Below, in pieces: positions 3,999 to 17,657 of a DNA stretch of 64,000 bases. Each line of letters starts with the position of its first letter. Position 1 is the stretch's first letter. Below the pieces are notes generated by a model. It did not search any database and was not told where the DNA came from. It was given only the letters and a program-made list of their open reading frames with translations. The position numbers and the translations under genes are program-made. This stretch comes from Myxococcota bacterium. Lineage in GTDB: Bacteria; Myxococcota_A; UBA9160; JAFDDA01. Where the stretch lies: contig OZ245817.1 of the NCBI GenBank assembly GCA_965228475.1, positions 4,768,262 to 4,832,261 of the forward strand. Reading direction: 5' to 3'.

Positions 3999-4510
3999 CG
4001 CAGGGGAATCGAGGCGAGGGCGGGTTCGGGGCGGGAAGTCACGTCGGGGTGTCCTGGTTGCGCCGGGGTCTTGGATTTACCATGCTCGGGACCACAGTTT
4101 AGGGCGGTCTGGAGAGATTTCCCCGGGGGCAAGGCATTCCTCGACGGGGACCCAGGGACGAAGCCGCTGCGAGCGGCCACTGGAGGTGGCCTCGTGCGGC
4201 AGATGCCGCAGGGCTGGACGGGCGGCGGGGAGCTGCACGGAGCCCGGCGGACCTGGAAGTCGATCTTCGGACCGTGAAGGTTGGAAACCGGTGCGAATTC
4301 ACGCTTTTCCCAATGATTTCAGGGTTTTAGAGAACTCCCGTCCCGCCGGCCCCTAGGCCGGCGCCACTCCACGTCCCCGCCGCCGCGAGGCGCGCGCCCA
4401 CCGCGTGCGCCGGCGGATCCTCTCCATCACCCGTCCCGCGTGGGTTCGACCAACGCGGCCTTGGTGCGTCGACCGACGGGTCGACGCGACCGGGCGCCGT
4501 GGGGACGGAC

Positions 4511-6472
4511 ATGAAGAACGAGATCCTGGTGAACGCCGAGCGCGGGGAAACCCGCGTCGCCGTTCTCGAACGCGGCCAATGTGCCGACCTCCTGATCGAA
4601 CGGACCGGCGCCGAGGACGTGGTCGGCAGCGTCATCAAGGGCAAGGTCACGCGGGTACTGCCCGGCATGCAGGCGGCCTTCGTCGACATCGGCCTCGAGA
4701 AGGCGGCCTTCCTCTACGCGGGCGACTACTACGCCGACGGCGAGGAGGACGAGGGCCGCGGCCGCCGGCGCAGCAGCGCGAAGAACGGCAAGGGTGGCAA
4801 CGGGAAGGGCGGCCGCGGGCGCTCGAACGGCCGGGGCCGCAACCGCCAGCCCCCCCGGATCGACACCCTGCTCTCCGAGGGCGAAGAGATCACCGTCCAG
4901 GTCGCCAAGGAGCCGATCGGCACCAAGGGCGCCCGCATCACCTCGAACGTCTCCATCGCCGGACGCCACCTCGTGCTGACGCCGCGCTCGAAGCGCGTCG
5001 GCGTCTCGCGGCGGATCGATTCGGACAAGGAGCGGCGCCGCCTGCGCGACATCGTGACGCGGCTCCGCCCCGAGGGCCTCGGCTTCATCACCCGCACGGC
5101 CGGCCAGAACGTCCGCGAGGCGGACCTCGAGGCCGACATCAAATACCTCTCCGAGGTCTGGAGCGACGTCCAGAAGAAGAAGAACGGCGCCGCCACCCCG
5201 AGCGTGCTCTACAGCGAGCCGCGCCTGCCGATCCGCGTGATCCGGGATCTCGCGAGCAACGAGACCGAGCGCATCGTCGTCGACAACGAAGAGATCTACG
5301 AGGAGATGAAGACCTTCGTGGACCGCTTCATCGCGGACCCGAAGCCCAAGATCGAGCACTACCAGGGCGAGACGCCGCTCTTCGACAAGTTCGGCGTGGA
5401 AGCCCAGATCGACGCCAACCTGAACCGCAAGGTCTTCATGAAATCCGGCGGCTACCTGATCATCGATCAGAGCGAGGCGCTGACCGCGATCGACGTGAAC
5501 ACCGGCAGCTACGTCGGCAAGCGCGACCTCGAAGAGACGGTCCTGCGCACGAACCTCGAAGCGGTGAAGGAGATCGTCCACCAGCTCCGCTTCCGGAACA
5601 TCGGCGGCCTGCTGATCCTCGACCTGATCGACATGGAGAGCCAGGCCAACCGCGACAAGGTCTACCGCGCGCTGCAGGAGGAGCTGCGCGCGGACAAGGC
5701 GCGCACGAACATCCTGCGCATCTCGGAGCTCGGCCTCGTCGAGATGACGCGCAAGCGGACGCGGGAGAACCTCGTCCAGACCGTGTGCGAGCCGTGCAGC
5801 TACTGCGAGGGCAAGGGCTACGTGCTCTCGGTGCGCTCGGTGACCTACCGGATCCTGCGCGCCCTGCGCGGGGACCTCTCGCGCCTGTCCGGGCGGCAGG
5901 TCGCGCTCTCGGTGGCCCCGGCCGTGGCGGAGCTCCTGCTCGGCGAGGAGAAGGAATCCCTGGCTGCCCTCGAGGCCGAGCTCGGGCGCTCCATCGAGCT
6001 TCGGGCCGTGCCGGGCATGCACCACGAACGCTTCGAGGTCCAGGCCCTCGACGCCGGGCCGCCGGTGGCCGTGAATCTCTCCTGGCTCGAGGCCCCGGAC
6101 GGCGAGGCCCCGCCGGAGCCCGACGAGGAGGAGGTCGAGGCCTCCGAGGAGGGGGCCGAGGAGACGCCCGCAGCAGAGGCGCCCGAGGCCGGCCCGGAGC
6201 CCGAGGCGGCCCCGGAAGCCGCCGCAGAGGCGGCGGAAACGGCCGAGACCCCCGCGGAGAGCCCCCCGAGCGGGGCCGCGGAAGCGGCCCCGGAGGCGGC
6301 CGAAGCCGCCGCTGCGGAGCCTGGCGAAGCCGCTGCGGAGCCCGCCGATGCCGAGGAGGCTCCGCCGGAGCCCCCGAGCGGCCCGGCCCTGGCCCGGGCC
6401 GAGGAGGCCCCGCTTGACGAGGCGCCGGAATCCCGGATACTCCGCGGTTCCCAGCAAAGCGGAGAGTCCTGA
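4511..6472 (+). CDS. ribonuclease E/G family protein (Rne/Rng)
   Basis: ORF 4499..6472. It has an S1 domain ([24 protein letters not shown]) and a catalytic core ([17 protein letters not shown]). There is an internal Arg/Gly-rich insert and an acidic Ala/Glu/Pro-rich C-terminal tail. The ATG at 4511 is preferred over the GTG at 4499 because of a GGGGA SD. Confidence 0.85.
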
Positions 6473-6783
6473 TGTACGCGGTTGTGCGAACCGGCGGCAA
6501 GCAAGTGTGGGTCGCGCCTGGCGAGGCGGTCCGGGTGGAGAAGCTCCCCGGCGAGGTCGGCGAATCGATCGAGCTCGGCGAAGTGCTGCTCGTCGGCGGC
6601 GAGGGCGAGGCCCGCGTCGGCCAGCCGCTCGTGGATGGCGCCAAGGTCGTCGGCACGATCACGGCCCAGGGCAAGGGCCCGAAGATTCATGTCTTCAAGA
6701 TGAAGCGCCGAAAGAACTACAGCCGGCGGCAAGGCCACCGGCAGCTCTACACCGAAATCCGTATCGACAAGATCGAGGGTTAA
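6472..6783 (+). CDS. rplU: 50S ribosomal protein L21
   Basis: ORF 6472..6783, [14 protein letters not shown]... is a typical L21. The ATG overlaps the rng stop by 1 nt (TGATG), and a GGAGAG SD is present. Confidence 0.95.
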
Positions 6784-6788
6784 GTCCG

Positions 6789-7049
6789 ATGTCACACAAA
6801 AAAGGACAGGGCAGCTCCCGCAACGGCCGCGACAGCAACGCGCAGCGCCGTGGCGTGAAGGTCTTCGGCGGACAGCAGGTGAACGCCGGTGCGATCCTCG
6901 TGCGCCAGGTCGGGACGAAGATCCACGCCGGGCGCAACGTGGGCGTCGGCAAGGACTACACGCTGTTCGCCCTGCGCACGGGCGTGGTCCACTACGACGA
7001 CCGCCGCGGCCGCAAGGTCGCCCGCGTCGACGAAGCCGCCGCCTCCTAG
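6789..7049 (+). CDS. rpmA: 50S ribosomal protein L27
   Basis: Internal ATG of ORF 6348..7049. [29 protein letters not shown] is the L27 signature (86 aa). Confidence 0.95.
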
Positions 7050-7081
7050 GCCCGCGGCCCCCGGCAAGCGGGGCTCCCCCA

Positions 7082-8167
7082 ATGAACACGGACAAGAGCT
7101 TCGTCGACGAAGCCGTCGTGCACGTGCACGCGGGGCGTGGCGGCGACGGTTCGGTGAGCTTTCGGCGCGAGAAGTTCGTGCCGCGCGGCGGGCCCGACGG
7201 TGGCGACGGCGGGCGCGGCGGCAGCGTCATCTTCGTGGCGGATCGCAACCTGGCCACGCTCGTCGACCAGCGGCTCCACCCGAAGATCCGCGCCGAGAAC
7301 GGCCTGCCCGGCGAACGGCGCAACCGAAACGGCCGCGGGGGTGAGGACAAGATCGTCCCCCTGCCCGTCGGCACCCTGATCTTCGACGCGGACGCGGGCG
7401 AAGACGCCGAACCCCTCGCGGACCTCTCCGAGGACGGCGCACGCTACACGGCCGCCCGCGGCGGGCGGGGCGGACGCGGCAACACCCAGTTCACCTCGCC
7501 CACGCGGCAGACGCCGGACTTCGCCGAGGACGGCCGGCTCGGCGGGCTCGCGAACCTGCGCCTCTCCTTGAAGCTGCTCGCGGACGTCGGCCTGGCCGGG
7601 CTCCCGAACGCCGGCAAGTCGACCCTGCTCTCGCGCATCTCCGGCGCGAAGCCGCGCGTCGCCGCCTACCCCTTCACGACCCTCGTCCCGTCCCTCGGCG
7701 TGGTCGAGAAGGGCGAGCATCGCTTCGTCGTGGCGGACATCCCGGGCCTGATCGAGGGCGCGAGCGAGGGCACCGGCCTCGGCGACCGCTTCCTCCGCCA
7801 CGTCGAGCGCACCCGGCTACTCGTCCACGTCCTCGACGTGGGGACGTGCCTGCTCGAGGAGCGCGACCCGCTCGCGGACTACGAGACCATCCGCGGCGAG
7901 CTCGAAGCCTACGGGGCGGAGCTCGGCGAGCGGCCCGAGATCGTCGCGCTGAACAAGCTCGATCTCATCGCGGACCGCGAGGCACTCGATACCTTGGAGG
8001 CGGAGTTCGCCGCCCGGGGCCGGCGCGTGCTGCGCATCTCCGGGGTGACGGGCGAAGGCATCGACGCGCTCATCGACGCCATGGCCGAAGCCGTCGGCCA
8101 GGCGCTCGACGCGGAAGAGCAGCGCAAGCGCGAGGCCGAGCGCGAAGAAACGAGGACCGAGTCGTGA
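7082..8167 (+). CDS. obg: GTPase Obg/CgtA
   Basis: ORF 7082..8167. It has the Obg fold (FVDEAVVHVHAGRGGDGSVSFRREKFVPRGGPDGGDGGRGG) and GTPase motifs (GLPNAGKST, DIPGLIEGA, NKLD). Confidence 0.95.
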   Translation: MNTDKSFVDEAVVHVHAGRGGDGSVSFRREKFVPRGGPDGGDGGRGGSVIFVADRNLATLVDQRLHPKIRAENGLPGERRNRNGRGGEDKIVPLPVGTLIFDADAGEDAEPLADLSEDGARYTAARGGRGGRGNTQFTSPTRQTPDFAEDGRLGGLANLRLSLKLLADVGLAGLPNAGKSTLLSRISGAKPRVAAYPFTTLVPSLGVVEKGEHRFVVADIPGLIEGASEGTGLGDRFLRHVERTRLLVHVLDVGTCLLEERDPLADYETIRGELEAYGAELGERPEIVALNKLDLIADREALDTLEAEFAARGRRVLRISGVTGEGIDALIDAMAEAVGQALDAEEQRKREAEREETRTES

Positions 8168-9297
8168 GCGATGTGCGAAGAAAGCACGTGAAGGGCGCGC
8201 GGCGGATCGTCGTGAAGGTCGGGAGCAGCTCGCTCAGCTCCGACGGCCAGCTCCGGACGCGCCTGTTCGGCGACCTCGCCCGCCAGATCGCCGAGCTCAC
8301 CACGAACAAGCGCCGCTTCGTGATCGTCTCCTCGGGCGCCATCGCCATGGGTGCGCGTACGCTCGGCTGGAAGAACCGCGGCCGCTCCATCCCCGAGAAG
8401 CAGGCCGCCGCCGCCGTCGGGCAGATCGACCTCGTCGAGACCTACCGCAAGCGCTTCGCCCGCCACGACATGCAGGTGGGTCAGGTGCTCGTGACGCGCC
8501 AGGGCATGGAAGACCGCGAGCGATTCCTGAACGCCCGCCACACCCTGACGACCCTGCTCGACATGGGCGTCGTGCCGATCGTGAACGAGAACGACACCGT
8601 CGCGACCGACGAGATCCGCTTCGGCGACAACGACAACCTCTCGGCCACCGTGCTGAACCTGATCGGTGCCGACCTGCTCGTCCTGCTCTCGGACGTCGAC
8701 GGCCTCTACGAAGAACGGCCCGAAGCCGGCAAGCCCAAGCCGAAGATGATCCGCGAGGTCGAGAAGATCGACGCGCGCATCAAGCGCGCCGCGAGCGGCC
8801 CGGGCAGCGACTTCGGCAGCGGCGGCATGGCGACCAAGCTCGAAGCCGCCGAGACCGCCGCCCGCTCGGGCGCCGCGACGATCGTCTGCAACGGCCGCAA
8901 GAAGGACATCCTCCTGAAGCTCCTGGCCGGCGAGCCCGAAGGCACGCTCTTCCTGCCCGGCGAGAAGCTCAACAGCCGCAAGCACTGGCTCGCCTTCACC
9001 ACGCGCCCGAAGGGCGAGCTCGTCCTCGACGACGGCGCCGTCCGCGCGCTGCGCGAGGGCGGCAAGAGCCTGCTCCCGGCCGGCATCACCGAAGTCCGCG
9101 GCCGCTTCCGCATCGGCGACGCCGTCGCCTGCGTCGACCGCCGCGGCAACGAGATCGCCCGCGGCCTCGCCGCCTACGCCTCCGGCGACGTCGCCCGCAT
9201 CCGCGGCCTCGAGACCCGCAAGGTCGCGGGCGTCCTCGGCTACACGAATGGGGATGCGGTGGTGCACCGGGACGACCTGGTGGTGCTCACGGGCTGA
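8164..9297 (+). CDS. proB: glutamate 5-kinase (with PUA domain)
   Basis: In-frame GTG at 8164 within ORF 7846..9297, overlapping the obg stop (GTGA). Motifs RIVVKVGSSSL and IPIVNENDTVATDEIRFGDNDNLSA, with a C-terminal PUA-like region. Confidence 0.9.
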   Translation: MSDVRRKHVKGARRIVVKVGSSSLSSDGQLRTRLFGDLARQIAELTTNKRRFVIVSSGAIAMGARTLGWKNRGRSIPEKQAAAAVGQIDLVETYRKRFARHDMQVGQVLVTRQGMEDRERFLNARHTLTTLLDMGVVPIVNENDTVATDEIRFGDNDNLSATVLNLIGADLLVLLSDVDGLYEERPEAGKPKPKMIREVEKIDARIKRAASGPGSDFGSGGMATKLEAAETAARSGAATIVCNGRKKDILLKLLAGEPEGTLFLPGEKLNSRKHWLAFTTRPKGELVLDDGAVRALREGGKSLLPAGITEVRGRFRIGDAVACVDRRGNEIARGLAAYASGDVARIRGLETRKVAGVLGYTNGDAVVHRDDLVVLTG

Positions 9298-9374: not shown

Positions 9375-9711
9375 AGTCTCTTTGCTGATCTCTAGCGGGT
9401 CGCTTGTGAGTCTGACGGCTTCAGCTCCCTTCACGCCCGCTTCGTCTTGGACATCGGGCGACGACTGCCGGGAGGCTTGGGTGCCACGTTCCCTAGGAGC
9501 AGGATCGGCACCGCCTCCACCATCATCGCCGCTCCCACTACCGGGAGCGTCACCACGATCGCCAGCATGGTCGCCAACACCAGCAGGGGAGGCATCGTCG
9601 GACGACGATGGTGAAGAGGACGAGGTAGACGAAGTTGATGAACAGGACGAGGCAGAACGACTAATGGCAGTGGGGCTGATCCGACGGCCAGAGTGTCGGG
9701 CGACCAACCTC

Positions 9712-10575
9712 CTAGGATCGTTCGCGGAGACCACCTAGGAACTCGTCGACCGTGGCAACGGCCTGCTGTCGAAGTCTGGCGTTCTCGTCGTTGTTCCCCG
9801 GAGCGGCCAGAAAAGACGCATAGGCGTTCGGGCCGTCCCGACCTACATCAGCGAACCGATCTTCGAGAAGCACCAGGGCGTCGATCACTTGGGGGTGCTT
9901 GATGACATCACTCGATGAGCATCTGCGACCAGCAGCTCGCGGGCCGTCAGCGTGATTCAAGAGCGTGAAGACCAGATCGTACGCGTCCTTGTTGGCATGA
10001 CGGTCCTGAAAAGCAAAGATCTTCAAGACGGTGTACGGAAGGACGTTCGCTACCTGCACTGTGACTCGGGACCGCCCTCCGCCATCGAGCCGCTCGCCCT
10101 CAATCTCGCGCTCCAAATAATCTCTGCGAACGAGCTGCGCCCCCCGGACGTTGAAAGCACCGAGTTTCGTTCCCGCATTCTCGCCCTTCGGTTTAAAGAT
10201 CCGGCCGTCCTCTACCTCGTCCGTCTCGCAGAGAAACTCCACCAGAACCGGGATGCCATCGACGTCTCTGGACCACTGAAAGCTGTGCTCACGCTGAACG
10301 AACTCAGCGGTTAGCAGGTTGTTCTGCAGGGTCCGGTACGTCTCGGGCGTCTCGTCACCAAGAGCGATGCCGATGACGAGATCAATGTCTGTGGTGCCCA
10401 CGTGCGGCTGCACTCCCTCTGGGAGCTGGCTGACCAGGTATCTCGGCGCGAGCCCTCCGGCGAGGAAGATCCGTTCCCTCCACGGCCCGAGGTCACCAAG
10501 CAGCGTGAGCAGGACCCGCTCGCAGCGCGCCGTCGTTTCCTCGTCGTAGCTGGAGCGGTGCCCTCGATTGGTCAA
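9712..10575 (-). CDS. nucleotidyltransferase, AbiEii-like toxin candidate
   Basis: ORF 9712..10575. NTase-like motif FLAGGLAPRYL..HVGTTDIDLVIG. The TTG start overlaps the stop of the upstream AbiEi-like gene (TTGA). The family call is by resemblance only. Confidence 0.5.
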   Translation of the reverse strand: MTNRGHRSSYDEETTARCERVLLTLLGDLGPWRERIFLAGGLAPRYLVSQLPEGVQPHVGTTDIDLVIGIALGDETPETYRTLQNNLLTAEFVQREHSFQWSRDVDGIPVLVEFLCETDEVEDGRIFKPKGENAGTKLGAFNVRGAQLVRRDYLEREIEGERLDGGGRSRVTVQVANVLPYTVLKIFAFQDRHANKDAYDLVFTLLNHADGPRAAGRRCSSSDVIKHPQVIDALVLLEDRFADVGRDGPNAYASFLAAPGNNDENARLRQQAVATVDEFLGGLRERS

Positions 10576-11624
10576 AACCCGATCACCTCTCTCCGTAGAT
10601 GGTCTGCCTGCTCCGTACCCCTTCGGGGATCGCTGCGTAGATCGACGTAGAGACGAAACTTGTTGACCAGACAGAGATTGTTGGTCAGCTCGCGAAAAGC
10701 GAGAGGTGCGTCGTGCCTAGATTGAAGGAATGTGACGTTCTGACCTTCGGTGACTGGCCTGGCACCAGTCACTTCGTGCAACTCTTCAACAGCCGCTGTT
10801 GCTCCTACCCAGACCTCGATGACAGGTACCGCAGTAATGAACGGAGCGATCAAGGTCCCGGCCGCAGCGCCTGTAAGCGCATACTCGATATGGCCTCTTG
10901 TGAGACGTTCGGCTAGCTCCTGGATCACCCGCTGGGGTGTCTGCTCGAGGAGATAGGCTGGGGTCCGAGTTGGTCGATCCGCGTTCTCCTCTGCCCAGAG
11001 ATCGAGGAGCGCGGCCGGGTTGGCGAGGCGCCGAACTCTCTTTGGCCCCGCGCCTTCCGTGGCGACGATCTCCTCGAGTTCCAGGCGGGTGAGTACGCGG
11101 TGCGCAAGCGCGGCCGACGTTTGCGCCTTGTCCGCAAGGTCTGCGACCTGCCAGTCACGATCCGGTTGCAGCAGCAATGCCTGGGCAACGATCCCAGCCT
11201 TTCCTCGCAAACGTGTCGGCCGTACCGCGGCAGCGTGCTTCGACGGCTTGCGCCGACCTGCGAGGTGGTAAACGAGGCCGGGCAGCTCAATGTGGGCGTT
11301 GCCCAGGCCGTCGATCAATGCGACGCCATGCTCCTTCAGAATTTCCCGCGCCGCGGTCGTGGTCTCGCCAGCGACGAGGAGCAGCGGCAAATCCGGTCGC
11401 TCGTGCGCAATATGTACGAGCTGCCAAGCGGTCGCGGTGTTCGCTCGCTGCTTGAACTCAACAGCAACCGCTGTCTGAGTCCCGGCGTATCGCACGATGG
11501 CATCAACGCGCCGATCGGGGTCGGGCGGCTCGGCGACGACCGTGAGGCCGGGGACCTCGCGGAGGATTCGGAGCGCCTCAGCTTCAAAGGCTCCGGTGAT
11601 ATTTACCATTTCTCTTTTATTCAC
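10572..11624 (-). CDS. AbiEi-like antitoxin/transcriptional regulator with a PD-(D/E)xK-like N-terminal domain
   Basis: ORF 10572..11624. N-terminal D..E.K pattern (RVDAIVRY..VAVEFKQR), a central wHTH-like segment (WQVADLADKAQTSAALAHRVLTRLELEEIV), and a C-terminal domain like the one paired with AbiEii-type NTases. Confidence 0.5.
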   Translation of the reverse strand: MNKREMVNITGAFEAEALRILREVPGLTVVAEPPDPDRRVDAIVRYAGTQTAVAVEFKQRANTATAWQLVHIAHERPDLPLLLVAGETTTAAREILKEHGVALIDGLGNAHIELPGLVYHLAGRRKPSKHAAAVRPTRLRGKAGIVAQALLLQPDRDWQVADLADKAQTSAALAHRVLTRLELEEIVATEGAGPKRVRRLANPAALLDLWAEENADRPTRTPAYLLEQTPQRVIQELAERLTRGHIEYALTGAAAGTLIAPFITAVPVIEVWVGATAAVEELHEVTGARPVTEGQNVTFLQSRHDAPLAFRELTNNLCLVNKFRLYVDLRSDPRRGTEQADHLRREVIGF

Positions 11625-11658
11625 CGCACCGGTAAATATAGGTATTTCGGTAAATATA
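11598..11658. promoter_or_regulatory. AT-rich operator/promoter candidate: three copies of GGTAAATAT(A)
   Basis: The plus strand has CGGTAAATATA at 11630-11640 and 11648-11658 as a direct repeat. An inverted copy, GATATTTACC, lies at 11598-11607. The set straddles the AbiEi-like start codon (GTG 11624; alternative ATG 11609). Confidence 0.35.
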
Positions 11659-11798
11659 TCCAGAAGGCTTAGCCCGCAGCTTGACCCCCCAACTAAGAAA
11701 ATTTTCCCTTTTATTTCAGATAGTTACTACCCCGATTCGCACACAGCCAGAGGCCGCGTCCTGGAGCACTGCGCCAAGGTCGATGCCTTCGACGGCCC

Positions 11799-12161
11799 CT
11801 AAGGGGAGCAACGCCCCCGCGAGTCGTATGCCCAGTCAACGCCGCCCCGACGCAGGAAGAAGTGACTCTTGCAGCCAACCGTCCTTCGAATCGACGGGTG
11901 AAGGGTGATCGTACCGCTCTTGTGAGGCACCGCGCTCCAACGTGGGCGAATTGTGGGCAGGGTGTTGAGCTGGATGAGCTCGCCGCACTCGCACGGGCAC
12001 AAGAAGCAGACGAACCAAAGATGCCCGCCTTCGCCGACCAGGTAGAGGGCGCCAGCCTCCGGCTCGTCGGGGATATCGTGAGTGGTGCGGTTGCGGTACG
12101 GCGCCGGGCGCCCGCGAAGTTGCTCCCAGGCCCGGGTCAGCCAGTACAGCAGGCCCTCCAC
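11799..12161 (-). CDS. DUF6527-like Cys/His-cluster protein (candidate Zn-binding partner of the Ubl system)
   Basis: Last 121 codons of ORF 11799..12305. The GTG at 12159-12161 overlaps the E1 stop by 1 nt (TAGTG), with a GGAG SD 8-9 nt upstream. Motifs FVCFLCPCECGELIQLN ... HPSIRRTVGCKSHFFL. Confidence 0.65.
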   Translation of the reverse strand: MEGLLYWLTRAWEQLRGRPAPYRNRTTHDIPDEPEAGALYLVGEGGHLWFVCFLCPCECGELIQLNTLPTIRPRWSAVPHKSGTITLHPSIRRTVGCKSHFFLRRGGVDWAYDSRGRCSP

Positions 12162-13555
12162 TACTTGCTCTCCTTCTTCGCGCTCAGCATGGGCAGCCCA
12201 AGTGGCGGGCTCGAATCGCCTCGGCCGACGCACTTCGCAAGGGCTGCATCTACCTCGTAGTCGCACTCCGCCTTCACGATCTGGAACAGCCCAGAGTGGG
12301 ACCACATGAGCGAGGCGAGCTCGGCGTTGTCCTCGAGGCGAAACGGATGCAGTCGCGCCAGGAAGTCGAGCACGGCGGCTGCGGAGTAGAACATGTTCAC
12401 GGGCGCCACCGCCGGGCGACCGACCTCGACGCCGGTGATGTATTTCTCGTCGCGCTCCGCGGCGAAGGCCTCCGGGTCGGCGCGCTGGAGGTTCGCCGCC
12501 CGAAGCTGCTCGCCCGTATACAGGCCGCGAGTGAGCAGGCTCGAGAGCCCCGGCTGCAGGTAGTGCACCGTGCCGCAGACCTGGTCGATGCCGCCCGCGC
12601 CGTCCGCGATCAGCCGGACCCCAACGTCAAAGTAGGGCAGGGCGTAGAAGGCGGCGAGGCGGTTCAGCAGGTGTCGCCCGTCGATCGAATCGACGCAGCC
12701 GAACACTATGTCCACACCGGCTACTGCGGTAAGGGCATGCGGGTGCTCGAGCTCGTGCGGGATGATCTCCACCTGCGTGCCGAGGCCGAGCGCTTCGACG
12801 CGATCGCGGAGCACCTCCACCTTGAGGCGCCCGACGTCGGCCGCCGTCGCCCCGTCGATGCGGTTCAGGTTCTTCTCCTCGACATCGTCCGGGTCCACGA
12901 GCACCAGCTGCCCGATCTCGAGTTTGGAGAGCAGGTCCACCACCCAGCTCCCGGTGCCGGACGTACCGACCACCGCCGCGCGGAGCCCGCGGAGCGTGCT
13001 GTAGGTGCCGTCGCCGAAGACCTGGGCGTTGCGCTCGCCGGCGGCGCTCACGGCCGTCTCAAGCGGCGTGGAGATGTGGATGTCGGCGCCAACGATCATG
13101 ATGGACGAGAGCGGCCCGTGGGTGCCGTCCTCGAAGTGAGCGCGGGCGATCAGCCGCCGGCCCGGCAGCAGGATGGCGCTCGCGTGCGGCAGCCCATCAT
13201 CGAGCCATCCATGAATGGACGGGAACAGCGCGTCGTCGGCCGCGTCGTCCGTGATGCTGAACGCCGCGCAGCCGCTCGGGTGGCTGTGCACCTTGAGGAT
13301 GGCCATGCTCTCCTTCGTGGCCTCGACCAGCAGGGGCTGCAAGAACTCGGTCTTCCAGGTGAGGAGGTCCTGCTCGCGGCGCTGATACTGGTCTTCGGGC
13401 ACTGGCACGACACGGTGCCCGACCAGGCGATGACGGCCGCCGTGCTCGTGGCGACCGCAGAGCACGACGGCGCCGGCCTCGAGCCCATCCCCGGGGAAGA
13501 GCGCCCCTTCGAGCTCGGTGAGCTGCGCTTCGGTGAGCGTGAGCGATACGTCCAT
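12161..13555 (-). CDS. JAB/JAMM metalloprotease - ThiF/E1-like adenylyltransferase fusion
   Basis: ORF 12161..13681 trimmed to the ATG at 13553-13555 (MDVSLTLTEAQL), which overlaps the E2-like stop by 1 nt (TGATG). It has an exact JAMM motif, HSHPSGCAAFSITD (HxHx7Sx2D), with an upstream Glu. The E1 Rossmann segment is VVGTSGTGSWVVDLLSKLEIGQLVLVDPDDVEEKNLNR plus FGCVDSIDGR. Confidence 0.85.
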   Translation of the reverse strand: MDVSLTLTEAQLTELEGALFPGDGLEAGAVVLCGRHEHGGRHRLVGHRVVPVPEDQYQRREQDLLTWKTEFLQPLLVEATKESMAILKVHSHPSGCAAFSITDDAADDALFPSIHGWLDDGLPHASAILLPGRRLIARAHFEDGTHGPLSSIMIVGADIHISTPLETAVSAAGERNAQVFGDGTYSTLRGLRAAVVGTSGTGSWVVDLLSKLEIGQLVLVDPDDVEEKNLNRIDGATAADVGRLKVEVLRDRVEALGLGTQVEIIPHELEHPHALTAVAGVDIVFGCVDSIDGRHLLNRLAAFYALPYFDVGVRLIADGAGGIDQVCGTVHYLQPGLSSLLTRGLYTGEQLRAANLQRADPEAFAAERDEKYITGVEVGRPAVAPVNMFYSAAAVLDFLARLHPFRLEDNAELASLMWSHSGLFQIVKAECDYEVDAALAKCVGRGDSSPPLGLPMLSAKKESK

Positions 13556-13959
13556 CACCTGGGCCTCAAGGCGAACTCGCGCTCGAGCCAGAAGTGCACG
13601 AGCGCCAAGTGGGAGCCGACGTCGTCGACGCCGGGCCGCCAGGGATTTTGACCGGTGCGGTGGCGCGACCAGCGCTGCCACGACTTCCCTTCGAACTGGT
13701 CCGCCGAGATCTGCGGGATGGCGACGCCGTCGATGCGCGCGAGCGCAGGCAGGAAGTAGACCATGTCGATCTGCGTCTCGGGATAGGCGGGCTCGATGCG
13801 CAGGTTCAACGTGGCGCGGTCGTGCTTGTAGCCGGGCGGGATCGGGAAGTCGTGAATGATCAACCGGCCGACGCCCCCGGCGCGCACGGTCTCCCAGGGG
13901 AGGCCCTGCGCGTCGAGGAACTCGACGTCTCCTTCGGGAAGCTCGAACTCACGGCGCAT
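13555..13959 (-). CDS. E2/UBC-fold protein (prokaryotic E2 family E-like), cysteine-free
   Basis: ORF 13555..13959. E2/UEV-like beta-meander pattern GRLIIHDFPIPPGYKHDRATLNLRIEPAYPETQIDMVYF, then WQRWSRH..WRPG. The 134-aa translation contains no Cys. Its ATG overlaps the Ubl stop by 1 nt. Confidence 0.6.
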   Translation of the reverse strand: MRREFELPEGDVEFLDAQGLPWETVRAGGVGRLIIHDFPIPPGYKHDRATLNLRIEPAYPETQIDMVYFLPALARIDGVAIPQISADQFEGKSWQRWSRHRTGQNPWRPGVDDVGSHLALVHFWLEREFALRPR

Positions 13960-14264
13960 CAGCGCGACCCCTCGGTCTGATCGAGGGGCAGCGTCACGAA
14001 GCGCTCAACTCCCTTGCGGGTGAAGTCGACCTTCGTGTCGGCCAGCACCTGCTGCATCTCCCCGCCGCGAAACTTCTCGAAGAGCTGAAACTCGGCGGGC
14101 TTCTTGCCGACGAGCTCGAGGATCTCGGCGCCTGTCAGGCAGGGTTCGTGCACGACGTGGCGCTCACGATCGATGCGAATGCGGTAGCGGCGGCAGCGCG
14201 GAGGAGTGCGATCCTCCTTGGCATACCGTTCCAGGTCGACGACTTCGTCGTTGTGCTCGGTCAT
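13959..14264 (-). CDS. ubiquitin-like protein, single 'multiubiquitin'-type beta-grasp domain
   Basis: ORF 13959..14264 (101 aa). The pattern YRIRIDRERHVV..LTGAEILELVGKKPAEFQLFE..VDFTRKGVERFVTLPLDQTEGSR resembles the multiubiquitin domain family. It is the first gene of the cassette, with a GGAG SD. Confidence 0.6.
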   Translation of the reverse strand: MTEHNDEVVDLERYAKEDRTPPRCRRYRIRIDRERHVVHEPCLTGAEILELVGKKPAEFQLFEKFRGGEMQQVLADTKVDFTRKGVERFVTLPLDQTEGSR

Positions 14265-14305
14265 GAGTGTCTCCTCTGAGATGGAGCGACTTCGGTGTCG
14301 CTCTA

Positions 14306-14340
14306 CCCTCTATGCCGGCCTCAGGCCGGTTTCAGGACAC
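14306..14340 (-). promoter_or_regulatory. promoter-like motif copy A (upstream of the Ubl cassette)
   Basis: The minus strand reads GTGTCC-N16-CCGGCATAGAGGG and ends 41 nt upstream of the Ubl ATG. It matches 16537-16571 at 26/35 positions, with identical end blocks. Confidence 0.4.
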
Positions 14341-14349
14341 ACGGACGGA

Positions 14350-15285
14350 TCAGTCGAGGGCGGAGAGAACCGAAGCGGCGTCGGGGAGCACCCGCAGGTG
14401 ACGGCCCAGCGTCAGGACGGCGTAGCGGTTCGAGAACGACTCGAAGAGGAACTCGTGGGCTTCGCCGTTGCGGTCCGTGAGGATCGTGGTCTTCTCACCG
14501 AGCGGCCCCCCGCGAGCAGGACGGCAGTAGCTGGCGATGATCGCGAAGAGCGACTGCTCGGTGGTGCTGCCAAAGCGCTCGCGATACGACGGGGACTCGA
14601 TCACGTGCTTGCAGGGAGCAGCGGGGTCGAAATCGGCGTCCGGTCGGTTCGGGTTCCCGCTGATGATCCCCACCATGGGCGTGTCGGCGTGCGCCTCCTC
14701 CACGAAGCGCCAAAGCGTCGAGCTCAGCGTGTTCTCAAAGGTCTTCTTCAGGTCCTGCACGCTGTCGAAGGACACAGGAAGGTCGTTCGCCTCGTCGGAG
14801 AACCGGTTGGCAAGGAAGATGAGCTGGCCGGCGGCGTAGTTCGCCTCAGCCTCCGTCGCATGGCGGCAGGCCGGGTCGAGGTTCTCGACGTCGTCGCCGT
14901 AGGCGTATCGGCCGTGCCAGGGGCACATCTGGTGCCCATGCTCATGCGCTTCGAGCCATCGATGCTTCAGGGGGTGAACGTCGCCATCGATGAGGATGCG
15001 CTTGCGGTCGGGAAGCCAAAGAGCCCGGAGCTCGGCCTTGCGCACGACATCGAGAAGGAGGCTCGGTCGCAGCGCGAGCTGCTTGCTCGCAACCCGGATG
15101 CGGCTGGCCATCTCCTGCAGGGCAGAGTCGTCCGTCGAGCTGAAGTACTTCAGATCGAGTTCGCGGAGATCTCGCACGTCGGCGAGATCAAGGGGTGGCT
15201 CAGGGTTGCCGAGCGCACGAAGCGTCTTTCCGACAATGACCTTGATGTCCTCGGCTTCCCGGGCACCGATCGTGAAGTTCTTCAT
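14350..15285 (-). CDS. ImmA/IrrE-family HExxH metallopeptidase
   Basis: ORF 14350..15357 trimmed to the ATG at 15283-15285 (MKNFTIG). The start has a GGAGGAG SD and overlaps the upstream stop (ATGA). Zinc motif WLEAHEHGHQM (HEHGH). Confidence 0.8.
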   Translation of the reverse strand: MKNFTIGAREAEDIKVIVGKTLRALGNPEPPLDLADVRDLRELDLKYFSSTDDSALQEMASRIRVASKQLALRPSLLLDVVRKAELRALWLPDRKRILIDGDVHPLKHRWLEAHEHGHQMCPWHGRYAYGDDVENLDPACRHATEAEANYAAGQLIFLANRFSDEANDLPVSFDSVQDLKKTFENTLSSTLWRFVEEAHADTPMVGIISGNPNRPDADFDPAAPCKHVIESPSYRERFGSTTEQSLFAIIASYCRPARGGPLGEKTTILTDRNGEAHEFLFESFSNRYAVLTLGRHLRVLPDAASVLSALD

Positions 15286-15875
15286 GTCTCCTCCTCGCCA
15301 TCCGTGAAGTCGGCGAGCAGGCTGATGAACTGAGAAAGCTCGCGCCGCTCCTTCCACGAGAGCTTGCCGATGTCGTTGCCGGAGCTCGCGGCGAACTTCG
15401 TCACGCCGTCCTCAAGGCGGCGACTACGTCGCTTGACCGCGCCCGAAAGCACGCCGAGTGATCGCTCCGGCAGCTTGAAATGATTCTCGAGCTGATAGAG
15501 CGTGCGCAGGCTTGGCCGGAAGGCGGCATCCATTCGGATCTGATGGAGCTCGGCTTCGTCCACCGCGGCCCTGTCCGCCAGCTCTGCAAGGTTCAGCGAG
15601 TCACGGCGCATCAGCCGGTCGAGGAGCGTGTTCAGCCCTTCGTGAAGCTCATGCGCGGGGGCTTCCAGAGTGTCGGCGACGGTCGCTGCCATGTCGACAC
15701 GCGCGATGGCGCGATCGATGGCGAGCTCCGCTCGTTCCGCGATGGCCTCCGGGTCCTCCCCGTTGTCGCTCAGCGCCTCATCAATCTCCTCCTCGCTGGC
15801 TTCGAACACGAAATCAACGAACGCGTCATGCAGCGAGCGGGAAGAGTTTCGGGTGCTCTTCTTGCTCTGGGTCAT
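15282..15875 (-). CDS. XRE-family helix-turn-helix protein (putative repressor or anti-sigma-like partner of the protease)
   Basis: ORF 15282..15941 trimmed to the ATG at 15873-15875 (MTQSKKST), which overlaps the sigma gene stop (ATGA). Central Cro/C1-type HTH: LNLAELADRAAVDEAELHQIRMDAAFRPSLRTLYQLENHFKLP. Confidence 0.65.
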   Translation of the reverse strand: MTQSKKSTRNSSRSLHDAFVDFVFEASEEEIDEALSDNGEDPEAIAERAELAIDRAIARVDMAATVADTLEAPAHELHEGLNTLLDRLMRRDSLNLAELADRAAVDEAELHQIRMDAAFRPSLRTLYQLENHFKLPERSLGVLSGAVKRRSRRLEDGVTKFAASSGNDIGKLSWKERRELSQFISLLADFTDGEEET

Positions 15876-16486
15876 TCTGCCTCTCCTGCGCCTTCGAACT
15901 CTGCGAGCTTTCGAATGGCGCGCTTCCTGACGGTTTCCCATCTCTTGTTGTCGAACCCGAGTTCTGCCTTGATCTCGGCAGGCTTGAAGCCTTGCGCTTT
16001 GAGCTCGAGCACACCGAGGAGCTCTGGGTCGTCCGCAAGGAACTCGTTGAGCTTGTTCAGCGAGTCGCGGGCTGCAACCTGCGACTCGCTCGTTGCAGCG
16101 GGTGGCGCACCTCCGGGTGACACCGTGTCACCGAGGGGAGGTGGCCGATCGAGCGCCGTGGCTTCGAGATGTCGCTCGTCGGAGCGCTTGTTCTGCCCAA
16201 CGGTGTGGCTCGCGATGCTCTTCATCGTCTTCGAGAGGAACGTCGCCAACGACACGCCGTCCGGGGGCTGTCGGCGCTCCTCGAGCACCCGAACGACAGC
16301 CTCCTGAAGAAGGTCGTCCGGCTCCACGAAACGGGACTGCAGGCGAAAGTGCCCCCACCAACGCCGTGCAGCGACGAGTAGGCGCTTTCGGTCGGCATTG
16401 GTGATCGCGCGGAGCTTGGCAAGCAGCTCTTCGCCGGATCCTTCTTCTCTCTCATCTTCCGAATGAACGGTGTCGTCGTCGGCCAA
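15872..16486 (-). CDS. sigma-70 family (ECF-like) RNA polymerase sigma factor
   Basis: ORF 15872..16486. Region-2-like DDLLQEAVVRVLEERR and region-4-like LGVLELKAQGFKPAEIKAELGFDNKRWETVRKRAIRKL. TTG start with a GGAGG SD 7 nt upstream. Confidence 0.7.
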   Translation of the reverse strand: MADDDTVHSEDEREEGSGEELLAKLRAITNADRKRLLVAARRWWGHFRLQSRFVEPDDLLQEAVVRVLEERRQPPDGVSLATFLSKTMKSIASHTVGQNKRSDERHLEATALDRPPPLGDTVSPGGAPPAATSESQVAARDSLNKLNEFLADDPELLGVLELKAQGFKPAEIKAELGFDNKRWETVRKRAIRKLAEFEGAGEAE

Positions 16487-16536
16487 TCACGGGCCTCCCT
16501 TCGGATCGAATCTTCGTGCCCACGTCTGCGGTTCAC

Positions 16537-16571
16537 CCCTCTATGCCGGGCCCACGAAGGAACCGGGACAC
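16537..16571 (-). promoter_or_regulatory. promoter-like motif copy B (upstream of the sigma/HTH/protease trio)
   Basis: The minus strand reads GTGTCC-N16-CCGGCATAGAGGG, the same architecture and spacing as 14306-14340. It ends 50 nt upstream of the sigma TTG. Confidence 0.4.
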
Positions 16572-16574
16572 GGG

Positions 16575-16630
16575 AGGCACTAAAGAACTCGGAAGCCAGT
16601 TCCGGTCAAACCCAAGTGCCTGCTTTTTAT
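16575..16630. terminator. nested hairpin with T/A runs at the island's right edge (bidirectional terminator/insulator candidate)
   Basis: Outer stem AGGCAC (16575-80) pairs with GTGCCT (16616-21). Inner stem CGGAA (16590-94) pairs with TTCCG (16600-04). GCTTTTTA follows on the plus strand and AGTTCTTTA on the minus strand. The structure lies between the oxygenase stop and promoter motif B. Confidence 0.3.
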
Positions 16631-16660
16631 AAGGAAAAGGCGGATTGAGGTCGTGTGCGA

Positions 16661-16676
16661 TTCCCGCCACCTCCAC
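16661..16676 (+). repeat. right copy of the island-flanking direct repeat (TTCCCGCCACCTCCAC)
   Basis: 15/16 identical to 9355-9370. The extended context CGATTCCCGCCACCTCCACC is also tRNA/tmRNA 3'-end-like. It abuts the stop codon (16680-82) of the oxygenase gene. Confidence 0.7.
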
Positions 16677-16679
16677 CGC

Positions 16680-17657
16680 CTAGCGAACCAGAAAATCCTC
16701 GACCTGGATCTCGCTCCCGTAGTCCGCGAAGTCTCCGGCGGAGCGTTGGTCGCGGAAGTGGGACCAGGGCACGGGCCGGAACTTCGGGGCGTTCGACGGG
16801 TCGGCATCGAGGATCGGTTCGCAGACGGTTTCGTAGCGCGGGTTGTAGAAGAAGGGCGCGCTGAAGCGCTCGCGGTCGCGCCTCGCGAGGACGCGGTGGA
16901 CGGGGGAGCGATAGCGGTCGTTGCTCCAGACGCGGAGCATGTCGCCGAGGTTCACCGTGAACGCCCCCGGGACCGGCTCGACGAGCTCGAACCGGCCGCC
17001 CGTCTGGACCTGCAGGCTCGCCACGCGGTCCTGGTAGAGGATCGTGAGCGCGCCGGCGTCGCTGTGGGGATGGACGCCGAGGTGCCCGTCCTCGGGAAGG
17101 GGCGCCGCGTCGGGAGCGGCGGGCGAGTCGCACACGGGGTAGCGGTTCAGGCGGACGAAGCTCGAGTCGCCCTCGAAGAAGCGCGCGAGCCGGTCGGGGG
17201 CGAAGCCGAGACTCACGGACAGCGCGCGCAGCAGGAGCCGGCCGATCCGGCCGCACTCGGTGTGGTGGCGGAGCAGGGTGGCGCGCAGCTCGGGTTCGCC
17301 CGGAGGCCAGCGATTCGTGCCGTCGCTGTGGGCCGGCGCCGCGCCGCCGGCCGCGGGCTCGGCGCCGTAGTCGAAGACCTCCTTCCAGTCCGGCCGGTTC
17401 TTGGTGAGCTCTTCGTCGTAGTAGCCCCAGGCGTTGTCGCGCGAGCGGCGCACCTGCTGCTTGACCGAAGCCGGCAGCGCGAAGAAAACCCGCATGGCCG
17501 CCTCGAACCGGGCGAAATCGTCCTCGGACAGGCCGTGGCCCACGATGTGGAACACGCCGAGCGACCGGCTCGGGCCTTCGAGCTCCGCGGCGACGCGCTC
17601 GAGGGCTCGCGCGTCGCCCGCGTCGAGGCCGCCGATGTCGATGATCTCGGGGGGCAT
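16680..17657 (-). CDS. 2-oxoglutarate/Fe(II)-dependent oxygenase (isopenicillin N synthase-like)
   Basis: ORF 16680..17657. Motifs GVFHIVGHG, HSDAGALTILYQD, NLGDMLRVWSNDRYRSPVHRV. Confidence 0.85.
   Translation of the reverse strand: MPPEIIDIGGLDAGDARALERVAAELEGPSRSLGVFHIVGHGLSEDDFARFEAAMRVFFALPASVKQQVRRSRDNAWGYYDEELTKNRPDWKEVFDYGAEPAAGGAAPAHSDGTNRWPPGEPELRATLLRHHTECGRIGRLLLRALSVSLGFAPDRLARFFEGDSSFVRLNRYPVCDSPAAPDAAPLPEDGHLGVHPHSDAGALTILYQDRVASLQVQTGGRFELVEPVPGAFTVNLGDMLRVWSNDRYRSPVHRVLARRDRERFSAPFFYNPRYETVCEPILDADPSNAPKFRPVPWSHFRDQRSAGDFADYGSEIQVEDFLVR

Follow-up and report, generated by a model that had tools for sequence, protein, structure and literature searches.

How is a bacterial ubiquitin-like conjugation operon controlled when a sigma factor gene lies upstream of it? 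This question is raised by an island in the window, as the whole stretch of 64,000 nucleotides of Myxococcota DNA that was analysed is called here, in which the regions upstream of two neighbouring operons share a 35-nt motif. Bub operons are recently defined ubiquitin-like conjugation operons; what they do for the cell and which signal induces them has yet to be established (PMC11601596). Their regulation has so far been studied for repressors only, namely CapW, CapH+CapP as well as CapK+CapS, and the Bub and CapK/CapS papers name no sigma factor as part of a regulator. CapH and CapP regulate CBASS, Bub and further defence operons in response to DNA damage (Lau et al. 2022, bioRxiv 10.1101/2022.04.27.489752; PMC11601596; PMC13373217) and are present in 31% of Bub operons (PMC11601596). 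In E. coli MS115-1, CapH occupies a site in the neighbouring operon's promoter, and CapP, once activated by ssDNA, cleaves CapH (Lau et al. 2022); the E. coli enzyme cuts at F82|R83 in the C-terminal domain of CapH. The same study mentions, without characterisation, 24 CBASS systems that encode a sigma70-family sigma factor beside capH/capP. No characterisation of a sigma/CapH-like/CapP-like trio or of its promoter was found in the literature searched, the scope of which did not extend to older comparative-genomics papers in subscription journals.

The island and its shared motif

All seven genes of the island lie on the minus strand (Table 1). The first encodes a highly divergent sigma-like protein whose length of about 200 aa and modelled two-domain build agree with those of ECF sigma factors; the lines of evidence are coherent, but its scores stay under the curated cut-offs. 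TIGR02937 (sigma70-ECF, NCBIfam) aligned to residues 47-196 with E=1.7e-7 and 31 bits (cut-off 42.9), and Sigma70_r2 (Pfam) matched with E=3e-4 and 20.9 bits (cut-off 24). A search of the PDB with the profile of the family gave M. tuberculosis SigH (E=8e-4). The AF2 model (pLDDT 64) consists of two helical domains with a disordered linker between them, and the top Foldseek matches, as well as nearly all others, were ECF sigma factors, with weak scores throughout (best E=6e-3).

The CapH-like middle protein was matched weakly by PADLOC capH (E=2e-6) over residues 79-192, the HTH part included. A search of the PDB with its profile gave no match, and its AlphaFold model was set aside as unusable (pLDDT 43). 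The translation of the CapP-like gene contains HEHGH. As in CapH+CapP systems, an HTH protein thus adjoins an HExxH metallopeptidase directly upstream of a defence operon, with weak profile matches for both. In contrast to the canonical module, the window has the sigma factor as a third gene, and its middle protein carries an additional acidic N-domain, with the HTH missing in many such loci. The stop codon of the sigma gene and the start codon of the CapH-like gene overlap in an ATGA, as do the stop of the latter and the start of the CapP-like gene; the three genes therefore form one operon, in which the sigma gene is translationally coupled to the other two. The genes for Ubl, E2, JAB-E1 and BubE make up a Type I Bub operon as described in PMC11601596. 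BubA and BubB are encoded by two genes here, the stop codon of the one overlapping the start codon of the other, and the start codon of BubCD was placed by orthologue comparison.

Two more genes (350 aa and 287 aa) lie just downstream of BubE at 9712-11624 on the minus strand; nucleotidyltransferase/AbiEii (E about 0.005) and the PADLOC candidate PDC-M05A were matched weakly. They are preceded by the only sigma-70-like promoter of the region (11662-11635) and may be a second defence or toxin-antitoxin module of the island. The whole island (9700-16650) has a GC content of 0.61-0.64 in parts, compared to about 0.70 in the surroundings, and is flanked by proB and by a 2OG-Fe(II) oxygenase/AhpC region.

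Table 1. Coordinates of the island's genes, of the two motif copies and of the neighbouring sequence elements in the window.
Feature	Position	Strand	Description
Copy B	16537..16571	minus	Predicted promoter of the sigma/CapH-like/CapP-like operon; -35 GTGTCC 16566-16571, -10 block CCGGCATAGAGGG 16537-16549; sequence GTGTCCCGGTTCCTTCGTGGGCCCGGCATAGAGGG
Sigma leader	16487..16536	minus	50 nt, SD GGGAGG; DNA identity of orthologues to the window 73-88%, above that of the sigma CDS (64-79%)
Sigma factor	15872..16486	minus	Divergent ECF-type, 204 aa, TTG start
CapH-like middle protein	15282..15875	minus	197 aa; acidic N-domain, XRE-type HTH, CapH-CTD-like tail
CapP-like HExxH metallopeptidase	14350..15285	minus	311 aa; PADLOC capP E=1e-9 (weak match)
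Copy A	14306..14340	minus	Predicted promoter of the Bub operon; -35 GTGTCC 14335-14340, -10 block CCGGCATAGAGGG 14306-14318; sequence GTGTCCTGAAACCGGCCTGAGGCCGGCATAGAGGG
Palindrome	14315..14329		CCGGCCTGAGGCCGG on the minus strand; perfect, 15 nt, 7-nt arms and one centre base; overlaps the first -10 bases
Hairpin	14284..14303	minus	GAGCGAC-ACCGAA-GTCGCTC; perfect 7-bp stem, 6-nt loop; near the predicted copy A transcription start
BubA, ubiquitin-like (Multi_ubiq)	13959..14264	minus	Pfam PF14452 E=1.8e-13
BubB, Prok-E2_E	13555..13959	minus	Pfam PF14462 E=3e-37
BubCD, JAB peptidase-E1 (ThiF) fusion	12161..13558	minus	Pfam ThiF E=3.5e-29, Prok-JAB E=2.7e-5
BubE (DUF6527)	11799..12161	minus	Pfam PF20137 E=1e-19; start approximate

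Copy A of the motif lies in the 85-nt spacer between the CapP-like gene and Ubl and ends 41 nt before the ATG of Ubl (14264), while copy B ends 50 nt before the TTG of the sigma gene (16486). The copies are identical at 26 of 35 positions: the GTGTCC and CCGGCATAGAGGG blocks are the same, and the remaining identities are scattered over the 16-nt spacer. No similarity was found between the flanks of the two copies. A scan of the window for GTGTCC-N16-CCGGCATAGAGGG with up to three mismatches gave two matches, both on the minus strand, compared to 0.01 expected from shuffles. The relaxed pattern TGTCM-N15-17-NNGGCAT returned the same two sites only (0.22 expected). The initial annotation had reported this match between the copies, with its identical 6-nt and 13-nt end blocks, its 16-nt spacing and its distances to both start codons; its coordinates and counts agreed on recomputation, and its impression that the motif does not recur in the window was borne out by the scan.

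The annotation had also proposed a search of the whole genome. The scan covered a collection of 185,579 species genomes (one genome per species; the host genome is outside the collection). TGTCC-N16-CCGGCATAGAGGG gave 23 single matches in unrelated phyla, none of which adjoins island genes. This is about chance level, with about 17 matches expected by our own estimate from the information content of the pattern, and the exact motif was enriched in no representative genome. The motif is therefore no common genomic repeat. It belongs to no Rfam family either: a search of Rfam 15 gave no match in the window at the gathering score, and the single match at E<=1 between 14150 and 16750 was a spurious miRNA.

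Conservation in close islands and distant loci

In a protein database of 5.8 billion clusters, close relatives were restricted to five clusters for the sigma factor and six for the CapH-like protein. The same seven-gene island was found on the contigs L001/L002, L003, L004, L071/L072 and L073 in differing neighbourhoods. Since the surroundings of the orthologous islands L001, L003 and L071 are quite different, the seven-gene unit appears to be mobile. Among the proteins of the island, the sigma factor has diverged most (65-81% identity of L001 and L003 to the window), compared to 83-85% for the CapH-like protein, 82-89% for the CapP-like protein and 83-91% for Ubl, E2 and E1.

Both motif copies were present in the orthologous islands wherever DNA exists for the site, copy B in L001, L003, L004, L071 and L073 and copy A in L001, L003 and L071. 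Upstream of the sigma gene, the orthologues read CTGGCC-N16-CCGGCATAGAGGG, CTGTCC-N16-CCGGTATAGGGGG, GTGTAC-N16-CCGGCATAGCCGG, ATGTCC-N16-CCGGCATAGAAGG and ATGTCC-N16-GCGGCATAGGAGA. Upstream of Ubl, GTGTCC-N16-CCGGCATAGAGGG was found in two islands, besides GTGTCC-N16-CCGGCATAGAGG and GTGTCT-N16-CCGGCATAGAGGG. At the DNA level, the orthologues are 43-55% identical to the window over the 120 nt that precede the -35 block and 66-77% identical in the promoter, followed by the values for leader and CDS given in Table 1; conservation thus begins at the -35 block. The core common to close orthologues is sTGTCC-N16-CCGGyATAG, and the trailing AGGG is purine-rich and variable. A position weight matrix built from these orthologues did no better than chance at a low threshold (60 matches compared to 58 in shuffles), and only its high scores and their positional enrichment carry information.

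The sigma family comprises 1,268 representatives in a full HMMER search. With a profile from a 12-sequence alignment, 43 metagenome loci with sigma relatives of 26-42% identity were collected. In many of them, a small middle gene comes after the sigma gene, together with the gene of a CapP/ImmA-like peptidase, and the Bub operon lies downstream or divergently. At a locus GC content of 0.45-0.67, these distant loci have the same oriented signature, roughly TGTCC-N15-17-CsGCAT, ahead of both the sigma gene and the operon next to it. The colinear loci L028, L031 and L032 contain TGTCC-N15/16-CCGGCAT sites, and the divergent loci L036, L056 and L034 contain back-to-back pairs for sigma gene and operon. 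In L031, with a GC content of 0.45, TTGTCC-N16-CCGGCATAGAGGG precedes the sigma gene and CTGTCC-N16-TCGGCATAGGG follows capP; in L032, ATGTCC-N16-CCGGCATTA precedes the sigma gene and ATGTCC-N16-CCGGCAGGG the Bub operon; and in L028, CTGTCC-N16-CCGGCATAGG follows capP. Equivalents of copy A after capP were found in L028, L031, L032 and L075, and the arrangement with one site for the sigma gene and one for the target operon is shared by L001, L003, L031, L032, L036, L056, L071, L075 and L077. L075 and L077 are plasmids of cultured bacteria with hosts in the Planctomycetota and Alphaproteobacteria, respectively. In L075 (Planctomycetes Pla86 plasmid pPla86_1), the sigma gene is preceded by ATGTCC-N16-ACGGCAAAGG and the Bub genes by ATGTCC-N16-ACGGCACAGG, and L077 (Sagittula sp. 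MA-2 plasmid p8) has a divergent pair of TGTCC-N17-CAGCATGGG.

In the promoter windows of the loci, TGTC[CA]-N15/16-NNNGCAT was matched 18 times, about 13 of these matches being independent as many loci are near-duplicates, with 0.32 expected from shuffles. Outside the promoter windows, there were 6 matches compared to 7.5 expected. The distance from the motif to the start codon is 25-60 nt across loci. The spacer, 16 nt long in the window, has 15-17 nt in the relatives, and its sequence is unrelated between loci. Subfamilies use variants that recur in both copies of their locus, such as CGTCCACGG...GAGAGTCATAG in the group of L043, L048, L052 and L062, ...GCCTAA in L042, also ...GCCAA, and ATGTCC-N16-ACGGCAmAGG in L075. 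As each locus uses its own variant in both copies, co-evolution of the sigma factor with its promoter is suggested. Members of the L033 group retain the -35 block and spacer in the Bub-side copy, but its -10 is deviant (CGAGCCTTT on the Bub side vs CGCGCATAG), which speaks against the promoter reading. In this group (L033:3620-3705; also L037, L038 and L039), both divergent promoters have their -35 block and entire spacer within a 21-bp inverted repeat (TGTCCGAATGCAGGGyTGCGG), and BubA and BubB are fused in one ORF.

Further observations concern the plasmid loci. In L077 (4878-9666), the trio of sigma factor, middle protein and ImmA/IrrE-type peptidase adjoins an MvaI/BcnI-type restriction-modification system with Vsr and not a Bub operon. 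In L076, an Ensifer adhaerens plasmid, the sigma homologue is directly followed by a helicase-related gene (4884-8634); this locus is without capH/capP and was left out of the evidence for the motif. These two contexts indicate that the sigma family is not confined to Bub operons. In the deposited annotation of L075, the sigma gene is apparently divided or given a wrong start (CDS 4401-4631 and 4628-5098), and the motif together with an ATG at about 4486 suggests a single gene. In the same locus (4401-7480), no genes are annotated at 6629-7480, where Ubl and E2 are expected.

Probable promoter assignment and possible control of the sigma factor

The two 35-nt copies are probably the cognate, autoregulated promoter pair of the divergent ECF-type sigma factor that the island itself encodes. 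The motif lacks symmetry and points towards the downstream gene, with two blocks separated by a fixed-length spacer of free sequence, and its copies lie upstream of the sigma factor's own gene and of a target operon. It is from this co-occurrence that we infer recognition of the motif by the sigma factor. The initial annotation had suggested that the repeat could be a bipartite -35/-10-type promoter serving both the sigma operon and the Ubl operon. This part of its interpretation gained strong support from the conservation of both copies in the orthologous islands from the -35 block on, a comparison that it had itself proposed, and from their recurrence at distant sigma genes in colinear or divergent arrangement; its suggestion that the palindrome could be an operator did not (see below).

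In the proposed mechanism, (G)TGTCC would be the -35 element, followed by 16 nt of free spacer and by CCGGCAT(AG) as the -10 region. Transcription would be expected to start at about 14304 ± 3 from copy A and at about 16535 ± 3 from copy B. Copy B would drive the coupled sigma/CapH-like/CapP-like operon and thereby give positive autoregulation, and copy A would drive the Type I Bub operon (Ubl, E2, JAB-E1 and BubE). As there is no terminator between the two operons, read-through from copy B could contribute to Bub expression. As expected from homology to CapH/CapP, DNA damage (ssDNA) would switch on the CapP-like protease, which would in turn cut the CapH-like protein; cleavage would then either free the sigma factor or de-repress the promoters.

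The autoregulated promoters of group 4 (ECF) sigma factors, such as E. coli sigmaE and B. subtilis SigW, are likewise bipartite with a spacer of about 16 nt. One copy stands before the sigma operon itself and more stand before targets, and the motif is specific for the sigma subgroup. The promoter of group ECF41 reads TGTCACA-N16-CGTC. The -10 core of ECF promoters is usually CGTC, and the CsGC of the motif resembles it; in contrast to the usual CGT-type core, the family described here has CsGCAT(AG). The gene content differs as well. In place of a classical anti-sigma factor, the neighbours here are a CapH-like protein and a CapP-like protease of the ImmA/IrrE type, with a ubiquitin-like conjugation operon as the target.

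It is unlikely that the shared motif is mainly an operator at which the CapH-like HTH repressor acts on both promoters, with RNA polymerase using another sigma factor. Canonical CapH does sit at a conserved site in the CBASS promoter until CapP removes it, and the middle protein of the window clade matches the capH profile with its HTH included. Moreover, the identical 13-nt block exceeds the typical -10 length. The conserved right-hand block, with 9-13 nt, is longer than the usual ECF -10 element, and part of it could therefore be the site of another protein. However, an asymmetric, oriented and bipartite motif with a free spacer of fixed length has the geometry of a promoter and not of a dimer operator, and the gap from TGTCC to TGTCC varies from about 6 to 11 nt in divergent loci. 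The motif is also present where the middle protein has no detectable HTH; thus, it tracks the sigma factor and not the HTH. No alternative promoter was detectable at either site, and a scan of 11500-17000 with the consensus TTGACA-N16-18-TATAAT found no sigma-70-type site at either copy.

The lack of any match to TTGACA/TATAAT at the two sites also argues against promoters for a sigma factor of the host, housekeeping or ECF, with some other role for the island's sigma-like protein. A basal expression from elsewhere, which positive autoregulation needs, would fit such an arrangement, as would the scores of the sigma-like protein under the curated cut-offs. Yet the motif travels with the sigma family through hosts of 45-67% GC and different phyla, including plasmids of Planctomycetota and Alphaproteobacteria, its variants agree within a locus and differ between loci, and no representative genome is enriched in the exact motif, which together make this explanation very improbable. 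Chance similarity or a recent local duplication, with palindrome and hairpin as by-products of high GC, can practically be dismissed: the 70% GC window is rich in inverted repeats of at least 7 bp (1.77 per kb), but shuffles predict only 0.01 such motif pairs, and the idea is already contradicted by the comparative sequence data, with both copies kept in islands with 62-85% identical proteins and analogous pairs in far more distant ones.

The acidic N-domain of the middle protein is conserved from the window clade to relatives of about 40% identity and is absent from the canonical 103-position capH profile. PADLOC capH matched 6 of 11 middle proteins. In L035, L036, L040, L041, L042, L048, L052 and L056, the middle protein has only 130-150 aa and no HTH by Pfam; all eight keep the N-domain and a C-terminal (F/L)-(T/A)-AA-(R/S)...LS..E motif. 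Because middle proteins without a detectable HTH keep the N-domain, the conserved neighbour of the sigma factor is not a DNA-binding domain. As it is not the HTH that is conserved beside the sigma factor, the middle protein may be a CapP-cleavable anti-sigma factor.

In such a case, the acidic N-domain of the CapH-like protein would hold the sigma factor inactive, with the HTH as an optional add-on. Cleavage of the middle protein by CapP, in its ssDNA-activated state, would free the sigma factor, which would then fire both TGTCC-N16-CCGGCAT promoters, giving a positive-feedback burst of Bub expression from promoters that the host could not otherwise read. The trio would then be a self-contained, DNA-damage-gated switch of sigma factor, anti-sigma factor and protease that travels with defence operons, a view that is put forward tentatively and may well prove wrong. 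In RseA/sigmaE-type anti-sigma proteolysis, in IrrE-DdrO and in ImmA-ImmR, a stress-activated protease likewise removes an inhibitor and turns on a dedicated programme, and the window protease is of the ImmA/IrrE type found in the latter two protease-repressor pairs. The trio differs in that neither a membrane anti-sigma factor nor site-1/site-2 proteases take part and in that the interaction of sigma factor and CapH-like protein is putative. A further difference is that the two promoters in the window have no RDRM-type palindromic operator in common. If the anti-sigma view is true, a cytoplasmic anti-sigma factor controlled by an ImmA/IrrE-type protease would be a previously uncharacterised class, and the regulons of the trio could be predicted from the promoter signature.

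The feature combines known kinds of control, ECF autoregulation and CapH/CapP control, and is not categorically new. Canonical CapH+CapP act by simple repression, whereas positive regulation via a dedicated promoter is predicted here. Besides the repressors studied so far, the locus would represent a third regulatory logic, a dedicated divergent sigma factor with its own promoter signature before itself and before the effector operon, and this throughout the family. TGTCC-N15-17-CsGCAT could serve as a sequence rule to find regulated genes, and the orthogonal pair of sigma factor and promoter could be used to induce Bub operons experimentally. The promoter pair is a directly testable switch for a putative defence system. 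That CapP-type proteases control sigma factors, beyond repressors, is a testable hypothesis, and the 24 CBASS systems with a sigma factor beside capH/capP may operate likewise.

Inverted repeats and leader regions

The initial annotation had described two hairpins in the Ubl leader and had suggested the palindrome as a possible operator of the HTH protein. Both inverted repeats are indeed perfect. The hairpin lies in the leader as described; the palindrome, in contrast, would belong to the promoter spacer and not to the transcribed leader under the promoter reading, and its right arm coincides with the beginning of the -10 block of copy A. Among the orthologues, its arms are 5-6 bp (L001 and L003) or 4 bp (L071) long, and what remains common is only CCGG-N7-CCGG, with the spacer segment AACCGGC invariant in 4 of 4 A copies. 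Copy B contains no palindrome, and no palindromic site is common to both promoters. These findings do not support an operator of the HTH protein, and the motif also occurs at loci without a detectable HTH in the middle protein. The palindrome may be a further protein site that is confined to the Bub promoter.

That the 85-nt spacer between capP and Ubl contains two perfect inverted repeats of at least 7 bp is mildly unusual, with P about 0.01 at the density of the window. Neither is followed by a T run, and the terminator scan found no intrinsic terminator at either of them. The hairpin has a fold z-score of -3.6, with -2.5 and -4.6 in orthologues. Its 5-bp core GCGAC/GTCGC is conserved in close orthologues, where L071 has a C-to-T change that gives a G.U pair; compensatory double changes were not found among these orthologues. 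At the predicted 5' end of the Bub mRNA, the hairpin could act as a stabilising stem-loop or as a protein site, and it could also be a DNA operator that overlaps +1. The leaders of distant Bub loci often have stems (10 bp in L028) with mostly non-significant z-scores, and the conservation of the hairpin is put forward for the close clade alone.

The fold of the sigma leader was no better than that of shuffles (z about 0). Just before its SD, overlapping short palindromes are found (CGAA-GA-TTCG-ATC-CGAA), and the leader could be a protein-binding or regulatory site.
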